DNA of 64,000 nucleotides, taken from assembly GCA_963701025.1 (NCBI GenBank), contig OY969557.1:737953-801952 (forward strand). The letters are read 5' to 3'. Shown here one piece after another: positions 44,462 through 64,000 of this stretch. The position numbers and the translations under genes are program-made. A model generated the notes under the pieces. It was not told where the DNA came from and ran no database searches. It saw only the letters and a program-made list of their open reading frames with translations. How positions within the stretch are numbered: position 1 is the first letter of the stretch; each line of letters starts with the position of its first letter. The stretch comes from an uncultured bacterium (GTDB taxonomy: Bacteria > Patescibacteriota > Minisyncoccia > Phycocordibacterales > PALSA-1337).

Positions 44462-45292
44462 ATGAAAGAAAAAGCTATAGCCTTATTTGAAGGCCGTGAG
44501 ATACGCCGGCACTGGGACGCTGACAAGGAACTGTGGTATTTTTCCGTGGTTGATATCGTCCGTGCTCTGACGGGTAGTGAAGACGCACGGACTTACTGGA
44601 AAGTTCTCAAGCACCGGCTCATAGAAGAAGGGAGTAGTCAAACGGTTACAAATTGTAACCAGTTGAAATTAGAAGCCGAGGACGGCAAAATGCGCCTTAC
44701 TGACGTGGCCGATACGGAAACTATGCTTCGTTTGGTTCAGTCAATTCCATCTCCCAACGCCGAACCATTCAAGCTCTGGCTGGCTCGTGTCGGTTACGAA
44801 CGGCTAGAAGAAACGGCTGATCCGGAATTGGCCATCAATCGCGCGCTCAAAACATATTTGAGGAAAGGATATACTCCAGAATGGATCAATCAAAGGTTAA
44901 AGAGCATTGAAATCAGAAAAAATCTTACTGATGAATGGGAAAAACGAGGAGTTAAACAAGGACGAGAATTCGCGATCTTAACTGACGAGATCACTCAAGC
45001 TTGGGCTGGACTTACAACCAAAGAATACAAAAATTTTAAGGATCTCAAGAAAGAAAATCTTCGAGATAACATGACCAACTTGGAATTGGTCCTGAACATG
45101 CTAGCTGAAACCGCAACGACAGAAATATCTGACAAGCGCGAGCCAAAGGATTTTCATGAGAATAAGCAAGTTGCTCAAGAAGGGGGAACTATTGCCGGGA
45201 ATGCCCGCAGAGAGATTGAATCAAAAACCGGGAAGAAGGCTATTAGCGGTTACAATTTTAGAAAAGAGCAGGAAAAAAAGAGGTTGAATTAG
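44462..45292 (+). CDS. Bro-N domain / DNA-damage-inducible protein D (DinD)-like protein
   Basis: The N-terminal 'IRRHWDADKELWYFSVVDIVRAL...ARTYWKVLK' resembles the Bro-N/KilA-N-related fold seen in DinD and phage antirepressor-like proteins. Confidence 0.5.
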   Translation: MKEKAIALFEGREIRRHWDADKELWYFSVVDIVRALTGSEDARTYWKVLKHRLIEEGSSQTVTNCNQLKLEAEDGKMRLTDVADTETMLRLVQSIPSPNAEPFKLWLARVGYERLEETADPELAINRALKTYLRKGYTPEWINQRLKSIEIRKNLTDEWEKRGVKQGREFAILTDEITQAWAGLTTKEYKNFKDLKKENLRDNMTNLELVLNMLAETATTEISDKREPKDFHENKQVAQEGGTIAGNARREIESKTGKKAISGYNFRKEQEKKRLN

Positions 45293-45552: not shown

Positions 45553-46241
45553 CGGCGAGAATCGGAATATCCCGGACGATCGCAGATTTACAATCTCATA
45601 CCTCAAAGTAATGCAAGCAATGTAGGTAATTTTCTCGCAAGAGAAAATAAAAGTGATATTAAGTAGCGGTTCTTAGATTTCCTGATGGGAAATTAAGGGC
45701 GTATGGTGGATGCCTTGGCTAGAAAAAGCGATGAAGGACGCGGCGTGGCGGCGATACGCTTCGGGGAGGTGCCGAGCAACCTTTGATCCGAAGATGTCCG
45801 AATGGGGAAACCCCGTCGAGCGAACCTCGACGACCTTTCCAGTTACTCTGGTAAGGAGCGTACCCTGGGAAGTAAAACATTTCAGTACCAGGAGGAATAG
45901 AAACAAACATGCATTCCGTCAGTAGCGGCGAGCGAACGCGGAGGAGACTAAACTTATCCAAAATCGTAGGGCGAATTCCGCCTTACGGCCGTTTATTCGG
46001 TTGGAAGCGGAAACGCTTTGCGATTTTGGATGAGGGTTGCAAGGTGAGGACGTGCCATTTATGGCAGAGAAGTCAAAAAATCTTTCATTAACCGAACGAT
46101 CTGGAAAGATCGGCCCTAGAGGGTGATAGCCCCTTAGGTGAAAATAGAAGATCTTCTTTGTTCTCATTCTTAAGTACCCCGGGAAACGAATAGCTCGGGG
46201 GAATCCGCCGGAACTAACCGGCAAGTCTAAATATTTTTCTA

Positions 46242-46281
<40 letters not shown>

Positions 46282-47046
46282 CAGCCCGAAAGGGCGGTGA
46301 AATAGACCTGAAACCATATGCCTACAAGGAGTCAGAGCGGGCGGAACAAAGGTATACAAGTCGCAAGTAGCAAGAGGAACAAGTTTTCTACTGTTCTTCC
46401 TGTCACTTGTCGCTTGCTACTTTTTTTCCGTCCGTCATGGCGTGCCTATTGAAGAATGAGCCAACGAGTTTTAGCAAGCTGCTCGACTAAGCCCGAGAGG
46501 GCGGAGTCACAGGGAAACCGAGTCTGAACAGGGCGCTCGTAGTTTGCTAAAGACCCGAAGCCAGATGAGCTTGCCACGCGCAGGGTGAAGTTCGCCGAAA
46601 GGCGGATGGAGGCCCGAACCGGTGAGCCGTGCAAAACTCTCGGATGACGTGTGGTAAGGAGTGATAAGCTAATCGAATCTGGTAATAGCTGGTTCTCTCC
46701 GAAAGAACTTTTGGGTTCGCGTCGCGATGTACCCCTGCGGGGTAGAGCACTGGAAGGTCTCGAACGGGCGAAAGCTCACGAGACCTATCAAACTCCGAAT
46801 ACGCAGGGTCATTATGCGGCAGTTAGTCTGTGGGGGCTAAGCTCCATTGGACAAAAGGGAAACAGCCCGGATCTCAATTTAAGGTCCCTAAATCGACATT
46901 AAGTGCGCGTAAGGTGGTGGAATTTCTCCGACAATGAGGATGTAGGCTTAGAAGCAGCCATCATTCAAAAATAGCGTAACAGCTTACTCATCGAGAAATT
47001 CCGCGCCGCAGATAATCGGGGCTCAAATGTCGTACCGAAACTGAGG

Positions 47047-47251
47047 GCTTGCGGACTTCACAGAGGAAAATTATTTTGTTCTTTAGAAGATTTTGGGTCG
47101 GGGCGTGGCGTAGCCCGGTAGCGCGCTCGCTTTTTGTGCGAGAGGTCGTGAGTTCAAATCTCACCGCCCCGCCCACTCTTTTTCCGGCATTTTTCGCATA
47201 AAAATGCCACAGGCGATCAAATTGCTCGCCTCCTCTGTGAAGTCCGCAAGC
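47047..47251 (+). other. 23S helix-45 intervening sequence: 20-bp stem GCTTGCGGACTTCACAGAGG / CCTCTGTGAAGTCCGCAAGC enclosing a 165-nt insert
   Basis: A perfect inverted repeat replaces the short helix-45 hairpin. The conserved 'GGTAGG.GAGCGTT' resumes right after the 3' arm. Confidence 0.6.
47099..47175 (+). tRNA. tRNA-like cloverleaf (anticodon UUU, Lys-like) with an encoded CCA, nested inside the 23S intervening sequence
   Basis: A 7-bp acceptor stem (CGGGGCG/CGCCCCG), a 4-bp D stem with a 9-nt loop containing GG, a 5-bp anticodon stem with loop TTTTTGT, a 5-nt variable loop, a 5-bp T stem with TTCAAAT, discriminator C and CCA. Atypical points are C1-G72 and G37. Confidence 0.5.
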
Positions 47252-47974
47252 GGTAGGAGAGTATTCGCATCGCGTTGAAGCTGAAGGGGTGACCCGCAGT
47301 GGAGCGTTGCGAAGTAAGAATGTTGGCACAAGTAACCGCAATGCGGGTGAGATTCCCGCACGCCGAAAAACCAAGGTTTCCTTGGCAATGTATATCAGCC
47401 AAGGGTTAGTCGGTCCTAAGGGGATGGCGAACGCCGCACCCGATGGATACACGGTTAATATTCCGTGACTTGCGTGAAATGCGATGGAAGGACGAAGCGT
47501 AGTATGTTCTGCGCACTATTGGATCTGACGTTCGTGGTGTAAGGGTGTGTCCCGGCAAATCCGGATGCTGGCTTCAAGGCCGAACTCAAGCACAGCGAAA
47601 ATGGCCGCAAGGCTAAAATAGAGCAAAGCACGCTTCCAAGAAAATTTTCTAAGCATAATTTCACGTAAACCGTACCGCAAACCGACACAGGTGGTTAGGT
47701 CGAGTAGACCTAGGCGAACGAGTGAGAGGTCTCCAAGGAACTCGGCAAAAAAGCAGCCGTAACTTCGGAATAAGGCTTGCCCTTTTTTAACTAAAGGGGC
47801 CGCAGCTAAAGTATCTCTGGCAACTGTTTAACAAAAACACAGCTCCCTGCGAACTCGCAAGAGGATGTATAGGGGGTGACACTTGACCAATGCCAGAAGG
47901 TCAAATAACGGCGTTGTATGTCGCAAGATATATGGTGACTGTTATAAGCCCTGGTGAATGTCGGTCGTAACTAT

Positions 47975-48885
47975 AGACTTGATCGTTGTAGTTACGATAA
48001 TAAATCTTGCCATATGCTGGAAACTCTGTGTATCTCGGGCTACTATGGTATAATTACACCATAGTAAAAATGCCATGAGTGCAGACAATCAGCAGGAAAG
48101 ATCAAAAATTGAAGCTTGGGTTCTCGGTTTCACGGACGGAGAAGGATGTTTTTCAGTTAGTTTTATCAAAAATAAGACTACAAAGGCTGGATGGCAGATC
48201 TTCCCGGAATTCGTGATAACCCAAGGAGCCAAAAGCTTGCCGGCGCTTGAAATAATCAAGGATTATTTTAGGTGCGGTAGATTGTTCATCAATAAGCGAT
48301 ACGATAATCATAGAGAACATCTCTACAGATATTGTGTCCGCTCGATCGCTGATTTGGAAAAGGTAATTATCCCGTTCTTCAAGAAGAATGAGCTCAAAAC
48401 ATACAAAAGAAATGATTTTCAGATCTTCTCTGAGATAGTTTCATTGATGTCAAAGGGTGTTCATTTGAAAGGAAATGGAATGAAGAAAATTGCTAAATTA
48501 GTGGAGAAGATGAACAGGAAAAAGAAATCTCGATTTCTGAAATCCTCAGAGACTATACGCAAGACGCTTTCTATTCACAAATTGGAACCGACGAATAGAG
48601 AATGATGATATAGTCCGATCTTTACAGCGATGTAAAGTTAACAAAGACTTCTTAAGGTAAGAAGAAAAATGAACGATCCTAAGGTGGAATAAGCTGCCTT
48701 AGTAAAATCTAGCTATATCGGTGAACATCTTGAAAACTTATCAAGAAAATACCGAGGCAACCTCCGCAAGGAGAGAGTCCGTAGAGACTAATACGCTAGA
48801 CTCCATTTACTTGGAGAAGATAGAGTCCGATCTCATGGGTGACTATGAGAATCTGGTAGAAATATCAGATCGCCCGCAAGGGTAG
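47975..48885 (+). mobile_element. Group I intron in 23S (E. coli position ~1917-1931 region) carrying a LAGLIDADG homing-endonuclease ORF. Boundaries are approximate.
   Basis: Exon 1 ends at '...GTCGGTCGTAACTAT(A)' and conserved 'GCGCAATTCCTTGTCGGGTAAGTTCCGAC' resumes after ~910 nt. The ORF lies within the insert. Confidence 0.6.
48075..48605 (+). CDS. LAGLIDADG homing endonuclease (intron-encoded)
   Basis: 'WVLGFTDGEGCFSVSF' is the LAGLIDADG motif. The ORF is embedded in the 23S intron and preceded by the ATGGTATAATTA extended -10-like motif. Confidence 0.8.
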   Translation: MSADNQQERSKIEAWVLGFTDGEGCFSVSFIKNKTTKAGWQIFPEFVITQGAKSLPALEIIKDYFRCGRLFINKRYDNHREHLYRYCVRSIADLEKVIIPFFKKNELKTYKRNDFQIFSEIVSLMSKGVHLKGNGMKKIAKLVEKMNRKKKSRFLKSSETIRKTLSIHKLEPTNRE

Positions 48886-49527
48886 TAACATAGCTCGAGC
48901 GCAATTCCTTGTCGGGTAAGTTCCGACGCGTTGAATAGTGTAATGACTGGAGAACTGTCTCGGAGACTTGCTCGGTGAAAATACAATACCGGTGAAGATG
49001 CCGGTTACCTGCAGTTAGACGAAAAGACCCTAGAAGCTTTACTGTAATTTTGTATTGACCGTACGTGATTCATGCGTAGCGTAGATGGGAGGATTTGAAG
49101 TTTTTCTTTCGGGAAAGATGGATCCGTCGATGAAACACCATTCTTGAATTTTGTACGTTCTAACCTCGGCGGCATAAACGCCGGGAGACAGTATATGATG
49201 GACAGTTTTAGTGGGGCGCTATCCTCCTAAAGAGTAACGGAGGAGCCTATTAAGGTCAGCTAGCCGCGAATGGAAACCGTGGCGATAGTGTATGGGCACA
49301 AGCTGGCCTGACTGAAAGTCGTACGTGACGATCAGACGCGAAAGCGGAGCCAAGTGAACCGACCGTTCGCATTAGATGCGGCGGAAGATTATCGGACAAA
49401 AGCTACTCTAGGGATAACAGGCTAGTTCCGCCTAAGAGTTCATATCGACGGCGGAGTTCGGCACCTCGATGTCGGCTCACCACATCCTGGGGGTGGAGAA
49501 GCTCCCAAAGGTTTGGCTGTTCGCCAA

Positions 49528-49559
<32 letters not shown>

Positions 49560-49974
49560 AAAGAAGTTACAAGCAGAAAGTAGCAAGAGGAACAGGAGAA
49601 ACATGCGTTTGTTCCTCTTGTCACCTACGACTTGTGACTTTTCTACAGTCTGAATCACTTCGAGAATTTTCGTTTTATTGAACATATTTCGCGCGGAAAT
49701 GCGGAATATGATGTAAAGAGAGAGGAATGACTAATCAACCACGGCGGTCACTTCATTTAATTGAAGTGATGAAGTCGATTTATATCGGAGGAATCCTCAC
49801 AAAAGGGGACAATTCCGAGGGAATGTTATGTTATAGTATCTGTACTTATGGATGGAGAATAAATAACAGCCCGTAGAGACTAAACATCGACCATCCGACA
49901 TCTAATATTGAATCTCAATCTTAAATGTTGTGATGAAGCTATAGTCCAATGCACTTAGTAATAAGTGATACCAT
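49560..49974 (+). mobile_element. Second group I intron in 23S (E. coli position ~2593-2596 region), without an ORF
   Basis: Exon 1 ends '...GGGTTCAGACCGT' (U before the splice site) and the insert ends in G before 'CGTGAGACAGGTTGGTC'. It is 415 nt long. Confidence 0.5.
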
Positions 49975-50358
49975 GCGTGAGACAGGTTGGTCTCCTATCT
50001 ACTGCAGGCGTTGATGCTTGAGGGGATTTGATTCTAGTACGAGAGGACCGAATTGAACGAACCTCTGGTCTACCTGCTGTCGTGCCAACGGCACCGCAGG
50101 GCAGCTATGTTCGGATCGGATAAGCGCTGAAAGCATATAAGCGCGAAGCCGGCCCCAAGATTAGGCATCGTTGAGACCCGTGAGAGATGATCACGTTGAT
50201 AGGCGTTAGGTGTACGCACCGCAAGGTGTTGAGCCGTGACGTACTAATCCGTCGATCTCATCAGGAACTCTACGAATCGCGCTTGATATCAGGTTTTCCA
50301 GCATGGGAAAATCGCCGGCATTGTTTGCATTACTTTGAGGTATGAATTGAATCCTCCG

Positions 50359-50468
50359 TTCTGGTGGTTCGGCGCTGTGGCACCACCCGTTCTCATTCCG
50401 AACACGGCAGTGAAACGCAGTTGCGGCGATGATAGTCCTTCGGGGCGAAAGTAGCTTGCCGCCAGAAC
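50359..50468 (+). rRNA. rrf: 5S ribosomal RNA
   Basis: 'CCGTTCTCATTCCGAACACGGCAGTGAAACGC' with terminal helix pairing ttctggtgg / ccgccagaa. Confidence 0.75.

Positions 50469-63260: not shown

Positions 63261-64000
<740 letters not shown>

Follow-up and report, generated by a model that had tools for sequence, protein, structure and literature searches.

A tRNA-Pro-type cloverleaf in a helix-45 intervening sequence of a CPR 23S rRNA gene: a candidate non-decoding tRNA mimic

Intervening sequences (IVSs) in helix 45 (H45) of bacterial 23S rRNA are known from Salmonella, Yersinia, Leptospira and Coxiella, where they replace the H45 loop, are closed by a long perfect helix formed by their ends, are excised by RNase III without religation, with fragmentation of the rRNA as the expected outcome, and in some cases contain small open reading frames (ORFs). 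Here we analyse an insert at the same site in the 23S rRNA gene of an uncultured ultra-small bacterium resembling the Candidate Phyla Radiation (CPR, or Patescibacteria) and in particular its Saccharibacteria, using a stretch of 64,000 nucleotides of its DNA (the window). Like the classical IVSs, this insert replaces the H45 loop and is closed by a long perfect helix, and the rRNA would be expected to be fragmented. However, unlike the sporadic classical examples, the CPR insert forms a fixed frame of a 21-bp stem with an abutting hairpin, which is conserved and covaries across a phylum-level radiation, and the cargo of this frame includes one to three tRNA-like elements. The insert of the window carries one such element of 77 nt, which we consider to be probably a non-decoding tRNA mimic that would be released from the pre-23S rRNA and processed at its ends, although our confidence in this reading is only somewhat greater than our doubt.

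The element also resembles several tRNA-shaped RNAs that are embedded in longer transcripts. The tRNAs in the spacers or distal parts of rrn operons, such as tRNA-Ile and tRNA-Ala in the 16S-23S spacer, are likewise tRNA-shaped, co-transcribed with rRNA and freed by RNase III, RNase P and 3' trimming, a route that we propose in similar form for the element of the window. However, their place is between the rRNA genes, and they serve as working tRNAs whose anticodons are conserved, whereas the element of the window lies inside the 23S rRNA gene and belongs to a family without a conserved anticodon. In plant mitochondrial t-elements, the mascRNA of MALAT1 and mitochondrial tRNA punctuation, a cloverleaf or L-shape within a longer transcript is kept for RNase P, RNase Z and the CCA-adding enzyme and not for decoding. 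The element of the window, being tRNA-shaped, apparently non-decoding and embedded in a longer transcript, conforms to this type, but those RNAs are eukaryotic or organellar and located outside rRNA helices, and the cleavage of the window's element is something that we infer. In fragmented organellar large subunit (LSU) rRNA genes, as in oyster mitochondria (PMC2996981), the LSU rRNA also comes in pieces with tRNA units between them, but there each piece is a gene of its own and the tRNAs are functional, whereas the window contains a single gene with a putatively excisable, stem-closed insert. A survey of rRNA insertions in the CPR described short inserts at this site as "probably" RNase III-processed IVSs, and its main text contains no mention of tRNA (PMC11270868). 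A first-pass annotation of the window had named no described case of a tRNA gene inside a bacterial 23S IVS; in line with this, we found no published description of a tRNA in such an IVS in the searchable literature, whose coverage is incomplete, so that this is absence of evidence only. H45 inserts and tRNA-like processing signals are each known, and it is their combination in a frame conserved throughout a radiation that appears to be undescribed.

The insert in the window qualifies as a helix-45 IVS, with a long perfect stem that closes it. The nucleotides 47047-47067 (GCTTGCGGACTTCACAGAGGA) pair without exception with 47231-47251 (TCCTCTGTGAAGTCCGCAAGC), which bears out the perfect inverted repeat recognised in the first-pass annotation but extends it from 20 to 21 bp. 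In the alignment to the Rfam LSU model, GCUUGCGG (47047-47054) and CCGCAAGC (47244-47251) correspond to the two strands of H45 (model positions about 1206-1226), and the 189 nt that separate these strands all represent an insertion that replaces the H45 loop, in agreement with the earlier placement of the insert as an IVS at this helix; the conserved 23S sequence picks up again at 47252 (GGTAGGAGAG). By the same alignment, the stem consists of 8 native H45 pairs on its outer side and an extension of 13 bp. The minimum free energy (MFE) fold of 47030-47270 combines the 21-bp stem with the full cloverleaf and two 3' hairpins at -107.5 kcal/mol (z = -7.1), a stability reached by none of 200 shuffled sequences. 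No promoter-like or terminator-like site was detected between 46800 and 47500; we therefore dismissed a transcription unit of its own for the insert, which is likely to be made within the pre-23S rRNA. Neither was there a second copy of the insert element in the 64-kb window, which ruled out a repeat or mobile copy within it. The intron models for group I (RF00028) and for group II (RF00029) gave no match within 47047-47251, and a group I origin of the insert was rejected on this basis and because inserts in the anticodon arms measure 19-90 nt, which is too short.

Inside the insert, ARAGORN called a tRNA with the anticodon TTT at exactly 47099-47175, which is its only tRNA call in the window, and the tRNA covariance model RF00005 matched 47099-47172 with 62.4 bits, above its gathering score of 29 (E = 3.9e-11 for the whole window). 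Both agree with the mismatch-free cloverleaf that had been proposed from inspection of the letters. It comprises an acceptor stem of 7 bp, a D stem of 4 bp including one U13-G22 wobble, an anticodon stem of 5 bp with the loop TTTTTGT, in which the "anticodon" UUU (47133-47135) is followed by G37, a variable loop AGGTC, a T stem of 5 bp with the loop TTCAAAT, and a discriminator C (C73) followed by an encoded CCA. The nucleotides engaged in tertiary contacts, as read from the sequence, are complete (U8, A14, G15-C48, G18G19, A21, U33, G46, G53-T54-T55-C56, A58 and C61).

The same helix-45 insert was found in about 65 CPR/Patescibacteria 23S rRNA genes by scans of GTDB species representatives and of metagenome contigs. 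The pattern for the GTDB scan began with the flank of the 23S sequence upstream of H45 and required behind it, at the spacing of a tRNA, U8-R9-G10 plus a T-loop motif; it set no taxonomic limit beyond the widely conserved flank. It yielded 13 matches, of which 11 were true and all of these came from CPR/Patescibacteria metagenome-assembled genomes (MAGs) labelled Saccharibacteria, Nomurabacteria, Wolfebacteria, Woesebacteria, Paceibacteria, Taylorbacteria or Parcubacteria, each with one to three RF00005 matches (35-66 bits) inside the 23S rRNA gene at H45. The remaining two, in a Myxococcota MAG (L008) and a Nitrospirae MAG (L013), were chance matches outside rRNA and were dropped. Since the GTDB inserts have the 5' arm in common, the metagenome contigs were scanned with a pattern on this arm only, which is blind to the cargo and revealed 57 loci, and RF00005 confirmed tRNA-like elements in these loci as well. 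ARAGORN without introns misses most of the elements with enlarged anticodon arms, which were recovered by allowing inserts in ARAGORN and by a custom scan for acceptor and T arms. In its relaxed form, this acceptor/T-arm scan detected a tRNA-like element in 32 of 62 unique inserts, compared to 3% of shuffled inserts. Identical elements were assembled from different samples in three cases (L022/L035, L040/L049 and L025/L065).

Judging by its sequence, the element of the window descends from a tRNA-Pro gene. When compared with real CPR tRNAs, six of which served as the only comparators for isotype identity, it is 71% identical without gaps to the tRNA-Pro(CGG) of locus L041 and 70% identical to the tRNA-Pro of L002, versus 56-60% for real Phe, Val and Gln tRNAs. 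With bacterial tRNA-Pro it has in common the pair C1-G72, G37, a D arm of the type GCG(Y)AGCC(Y)GGTAGCGC and the T loop GTTCAAATC, and C1-G72, G37 and the D arm GCGUAGCCCGGUAGCGC are traits of tRNA-Pro. C1-G72 and G37, which had been pointed out in the first-pass annotation as unusual for a tRNA-Lys, are therefore accounted for by tRNA-Pro ancestry. Canonical tRNA genes occur in two of the 23S/5S loci, namely Val-CAC and Pro-CGG in L002 (2289-2465, minus strand), beside the 5S rRNA gene at 2076-2183, and Phe-GAA and Pro-CGG in L041 (6986-7147); such rRNA-adjoining tRNA-Pro genes are a plausible source of the Pro-derived insert elements. However, the element of the window differs from a functional bacterial tRNA-Pro in its anticodon UUU instead of NGG, in its discriminator C instead of A and in its location inside the 23S rRNA gene, and ProRS needs G35 and G36. 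It also lacks identity features of tRNA-Lys. Bacterial tRNA-Lys(UUU) has the discriminator A73 and, beside U36, A37 as the site of N6-threonylcarbamoyladenosine (t6A), whereas the element has C73 and G37. The modification t6A is impossible on G37, and 1-methylguanosine (m1G) is also unlikely at a G37 beside U36, because TrmD needs G36-G37.

The CGGG... acceptor stem of the window's element recurs in thirteen unique elements from other H45 inserts of the CPR, and most of these elements end in CCCG-A-CCA. This family is characterised by C1-G72, G37, the Pro-type D arm and usually an encoded (A)CCA end; C1, G2, G3, G4, U8 and the T-loop positions G53, T54, T55, C56, A58 and C61 are invariant, and U(-1) was read in 8 of 10 C1-family members. 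In an alignment with the loop masked and the arm lengths normalised by hand to the cloverleaf, for which three members lost one bulged nucleotide and padding was added to loops, so that pair counts are inflated, 98% of the cells are paired and 14 of 21 pairs have changed on both sides, among them each of the five pairs in the anticodon stem and four of the five in the T stem; none of 500 shuffles reached the observed level, and slid controls gave 41-50%. The stems thus covary across hosts whose 23S rRNA is only 76-90% identical to that of the window, which means that related genes preserve the cloverleaf by compensatory changes and do not break it.

The anticodon regions of the family behave differently from its stems. 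Their anticodons are UUU (the window and L012-3), UUA (L040/L049) or UGG after G33 (L069), the loop of L005 has 6 nt, and inserts of roughly 40-110 nt are present in the anticodon region of L014, L022/L035, L025/L065, L032, L059 and L063. The nearest homologue, L022/L035, illustrates this divergence: its first 32 nt equal those of the window's element except that C6 is replaced by U, with a compensating A in place of G67, and its D arm and anticodon stem are exactly the same, but about 72 extra nt in the anticodon loop form a branched arm of about 80 nt. Despite its length of 149 nt, this element reaches 51.7 bits, and its fold remains a cloverleaf, in which the anticodon arm is extended. Thus, orthologues do not keep the anticodon loop as would be expected for a decoding tRNA. 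Since stems and T loop covary or are invariant and the anticodon regions diverge, we conclude that selection maintains the acceptor end, the T loop and the shape of a tRNA, and not the anticodon.

Among all 42 unique insert-borne elements, 13 have an anticodon arm fit for decoding and 29 do not. The latter comprise 15 elements with inserts and three with loops that are not 7 nt long; the rest have stop anticodons (UUA, CUA), an A34 other than in ACG, no U33, or a pyrimidine at position 37. In a second family, with a GGACG... acceptor stem (L004, L011, L012 and L064), the anticodon likewise differs from host to host (GAA, GAA, GCA and an irregular loop). Several individual elements deserve mention in their own right. 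The one at 4961-5034 of L068, an Arg(ACG) with an A20-type D loop, an ACCA end and 63.7 bits, looks much nearer to a working gene, and in some lineages such as this one the insert may hold a working tRNA gene, with the rRNA precursor being at the same time a tRNA precursor. L071-2 (2890-2960 of L071) combines the Ala identity pair G3:U70 with C33 in the anticodon loop. The first elements of L007 and L012, which stem from Saccharibacteria and Paceibacteria MAGs, have the same unusual loop CUAUUAA (anticodon AUU, with A34), and such a recurrence would not be expected of loops without any constraint.

The frame that carries these elements consists of the 21-bp stem, i.e. the 8 native H45 pairs and the 13-bp extension, and a hairpin stacked on the 3' arm, and the window has it. 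In every complete insert both arms pair at 21 of 21 positions, although the 3' arm was absent from both search patterns. Among 35 unique stems, all 735 of 735 cells (100%) are standard pairs and 16 of the 21 pairs have changed on both sides, a level reached by none of 500 shuffles, and slid controls gave 33-44%. Of 50 complete unique inserts, 46 have a hairpin directly adjoining the 3' arm, regardless of the cargo. The contents of the frame vary: it can be empty, as in L042 (63 nt) and L061 (80 nt), or it can contain small ORFs, other structured RNA, or one to three tRNA-like elements, with cargo lengths of up to 700-800 nt. The small ORFs, which have Shine-Dalgarno sequences, are found mainly in one clade, in which the relaxed scan detected no tRNA-like element. 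As empty and ORF-only frames exist, we conclude that the tRNA-like element is cargo and not the device by which the insert is removed.

Further observations concern the cargo itself. ORFs in place of tRNA-like elements were noted in L016, L018/L044, L029, L034, L041, L043, L052, L056, L057 and L070, and L027 contains a tRNA-Cys-like element together with an ORF. The insert ORFs encode 44-89 aa; six have a "..FEA..(D/E)EEA.." motif and three resemble single-pass membrane peptides, and a search of the small ORFs of sister inserts against Pfam gave nothing at or above the curated cut-off. In L020, L040/L049, L022/L035, L059 and L047, the tRNA-like element is preceded by extra RNA modules with strong structure and a size of about 90-250 nt, one of which (...GGTGGTYC...AGTCAYKGACTCAGCCATC...) is common to L020 and L040; the modules of L022, L040 and L059 matched no Rfam family at threshold. 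Of 31 inserts with tRNA-like elements, 21 have a conserved GTTCTTT motif at 10-20 nt upstream of the first such element; the motif is much rarer among the other inserts (8 of 31).

We propose that the insert is transcribed as part of the pre-23S rRNA and that its 21-bp helix would be cut by a double-strand-specific nuclease, by analogy with the cleavage of classical H45 inserts by RNase III. This cut would result in a 23S rRNA in two pieces and a freed RNA of about 165-190 nt, from which cleavage by RNase P at 47099 and trimming to 47175 might then yield a discrete tRNA-sized RNA of about 77 nt. The element is likely to be a substrate of RNase P and of 3' trimming because of its L-shape, its 7-bp acceptor stem, U(-1) and the encoded CCA. 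It could act as a handle for tRNA-processing enzymes, in the punctuation or turnover of the excised cargo RNA; alternatively, it could function in its own right as a small tRNA-shaped RNA, or be a tolerated passenger. More tentatively, and with more doubt than conviction, we suggest that the H45 insert of CPR/Patescibacteria is a platform for the expression and release of cargo RNAs, and that its tRNA-like cargo represents a new class of functional, rRNA-derived, tRNA-shaped small RNAs that are kept for tRNA-handling enzymes and not for decoding. CPR genomes have been reported to keep rnc, the gene of RNase III (PMC12641178).

Several points weigh against our interpretation of the element as a released, non-decoding mimic. 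We infer the cleavage of the stem, the cut by RNase P and the 77-nt product from sequence, and the empty and ORF-only frames, which imply that the tRNA-like element is not required for processing of the insert, weaken a pure role as processing signal. The GTDB inserts were selected for the T-loop motif, and the manual normalisation of the family alignment favours pairing in the counts. Moreover, the anticodon loop may be constrained in some lineages, since UUU followed by G37 recurs in L012-3 and L071-1, and the copy in the window, with its canonical loop of 7 nt, U33 and a purine at position 37, is compatible with decoding. The last two points, together with the high tRNA score, the intact tertiary nucleotides, the encoded CCA, the fully canonical appearance of some insert-borne tRNAs (L068) and the lack of any other tRNA in the 64-kb window, would fit a genuine decoding tRNA-Lys(UUU) gene, for which the pre-23S rRNA would double as tRNA precursor, as the first-pass annotation had envisaged. 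We nevertheless regard this as improbable. A tRNA-Pro-like body with C1-G72 and a Pro-type D arm, C73 instead of A73, a G37 beside U36 that is closed to t6A and probably to m1G, and the unconstrained anticodon throughout the family, in which UUA, UGG after G33, a 6-nt loop and large inserts occur on covarying stems, argue that the element is not the cell's tRNA-Lys, and more than two thirds of the unique insert-borne elements (29/42) are unfit for decoding. The same combination of Pro ancestry and an anticodon loop that is free to change over covarying stems favours the caveat, added in that annotation, that the element is a tRNA mimic or pseudo-tRNA.

The element might instead be a functionless passenger, i.e. 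a copy of a tRNA-Pro captured in a permissive, excised site, which would persist for the sole reason that a compact fold, its 5' and 3' ends lying side by side, spares the 21-bp stem and the folding of the 23S rRNA. The very heterogeneous cargo, the empty frames, the decay of anticodon loops or their gain of insertions, and the apparently independent capture of several tRNA types (Pro-like, GGACG-type, Arg, Ala-like with G3:U70, and Ser-like) are consistent with this explanation, which we consider unlikely but the most serious of the competing ones. However, a mere spacer needs neither U8, nor a T loop with G53-T54-T55-C56..A58..C61, nor an encoded (A)CCA, nor U(-1), and compensatory changes have maintained all four stems across the divergent hosts. 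Retention of the insert, such that the extended H45 and its tRNA-shaped domain would form an expansion segment of the mature ribosome, comparable to the structural tRNA of mitochondrial ribosomes, appears still less likely. Excision at this locus is putative, and the stem is strict in length and partly conserved in sequence (CATTGAGGA/TCCTCAATG), as could be expected of a protein-binding site, but the same frame also carries Shine-Dalgarno ORFs and long cargo that would make more sense as released RNAs, RNase III excises classical H45 inserts with such stems (PMC11270868), and rnc is kept in CPR genomes. Finally, the source is a metagenome assembly, and an assembly chimera or a chance cloverleaf would be conceivable; given that more than 60 independent contigs, which come from many projects, have the same architecture and that different samples yielded identical elements, and with E = 4e-11 for the tRNA match and the z-score of the fold, we regard such an artefact as practically negligible. 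We therefore retain the interpretation as a non-decoding mimic, with the features of the locus compiled in Table 1.

Table 1 The 23S rRNA gene of the window and the parts of its helix-45 insert (positions in the window; IVS, intervening sequence; MFE, minimum free energy).
Feature	Position	Strand	Details and evidence
23S rRNA gene hosting the helix-45 insert	45683-50265	+	4583 nt; RF02541 2195 bits, model 1-2925 (full-length bacterial)
Native helix-45 stem, 5' strand (GCTTGCGG)	47047-47054	+	Aligned to H45 of the Rfam LSU model
IVS-specific stem extension, 5' arm (ACTTCACAGAGGA)	47055-47067	+	Inverted repeat, MFE fold, covariation in homologues
A/T-rich 5' leader	47068-47098	+	GTTCTTT motif at 47078-47084; U at -1 (47098)
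tRNA-like element, 77 nt, tRNA-Pro-type body	47099-47175	+	ARAGORN; RF00005; identity to real tRNA-Pro; family covariation
Hairpin 1 (GGCATTTTT-CGCAT-AAAAATGCC)	47186-47208	+	MFE fold; homologous hairpin in L022; not terminator-like
Terminal hairpin abutting the 3' arm of the stem	47212-47230	+	MFE fold; conserved feature of the frame
IVS-specific stem extension, 3' arm (TCCTCTGTGAAGT)	47231-47243	+	Inverted repeat, fold, covariation
Native helix-45 stem, 3' strand (CCGCAAGC)	47244-47251	+	Rfam LSU alignment

The 23S rRNA genes closest to that of the window (88-90% similar) are those of L045, L059, L009, L020 and L035, and L009 and L003 carry Saccharibacteria labels. Compared with its relatives, the gene of the window contains further insertions at 47976-48897 and 49560-49968. 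The former includes an ORF of a LAGLIDADG homing endonuclease (48075-48605, PF00961) adjoining a group I intron match (48642-48849, RF00028), and the latter a second group I intron match (49680-49968, RF00028). Two stretches of about 80-90 nt each (45954-46033 and 46340-46432) are unaligned to the 23S rRNA of most relatives and may represent variable helices or another insert site. Two ORFs that overlap both the rRNA and the tRNA-like element, one on the minus strand (46988-47452) and one of 50 aa on the plus strand that spans the insert, were for this reason treated as spurious. Directly upstream of the 23S rRNA gene lies an ORF (44462-45292) with a Bro-N domain (PF02498), which is typical of phage- or virus-related proteins. 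A 5S rRNA was identified downstream at 50360-50467 in the Rfam scan, and the 5' part of a 16S rRNA at 63262-63759, covering model positions 9-546 only. As this partial 16S rRNA is located 13 kb downstream of the 23S-5S pair and is separated from it by protein-coding genes, we conclude that the rRNA genes are unlinked and in an unusual order. The 16S match ends 240 nt short of the end of the window (64000), which suggests an insertion there, too.

Pseudo-tRNAs carried by such inserts, among them apparent suppressors (UUA, CUA) and elements with A34 anticodons, will distort the tRNA counts that are used in estimating how complete metagenome-assembled genomes are and in inferring decoding capacity. 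If our interpretation is true, bacteria whose RNase repertoires are minimal would have rRNA fragmentation linked to their tRNA-processing machinery, and the insert-borne elements would constitute a clean evolutionary series that starts with a canonical tRNA and leads to mimics whose anticodon arms are remodelled. The helix-45 frame would then represent a natural "cargo slot", situated in the gene that the cell transcribes most highly, for tRNA mimics, small ORFs and other structured RNAs.

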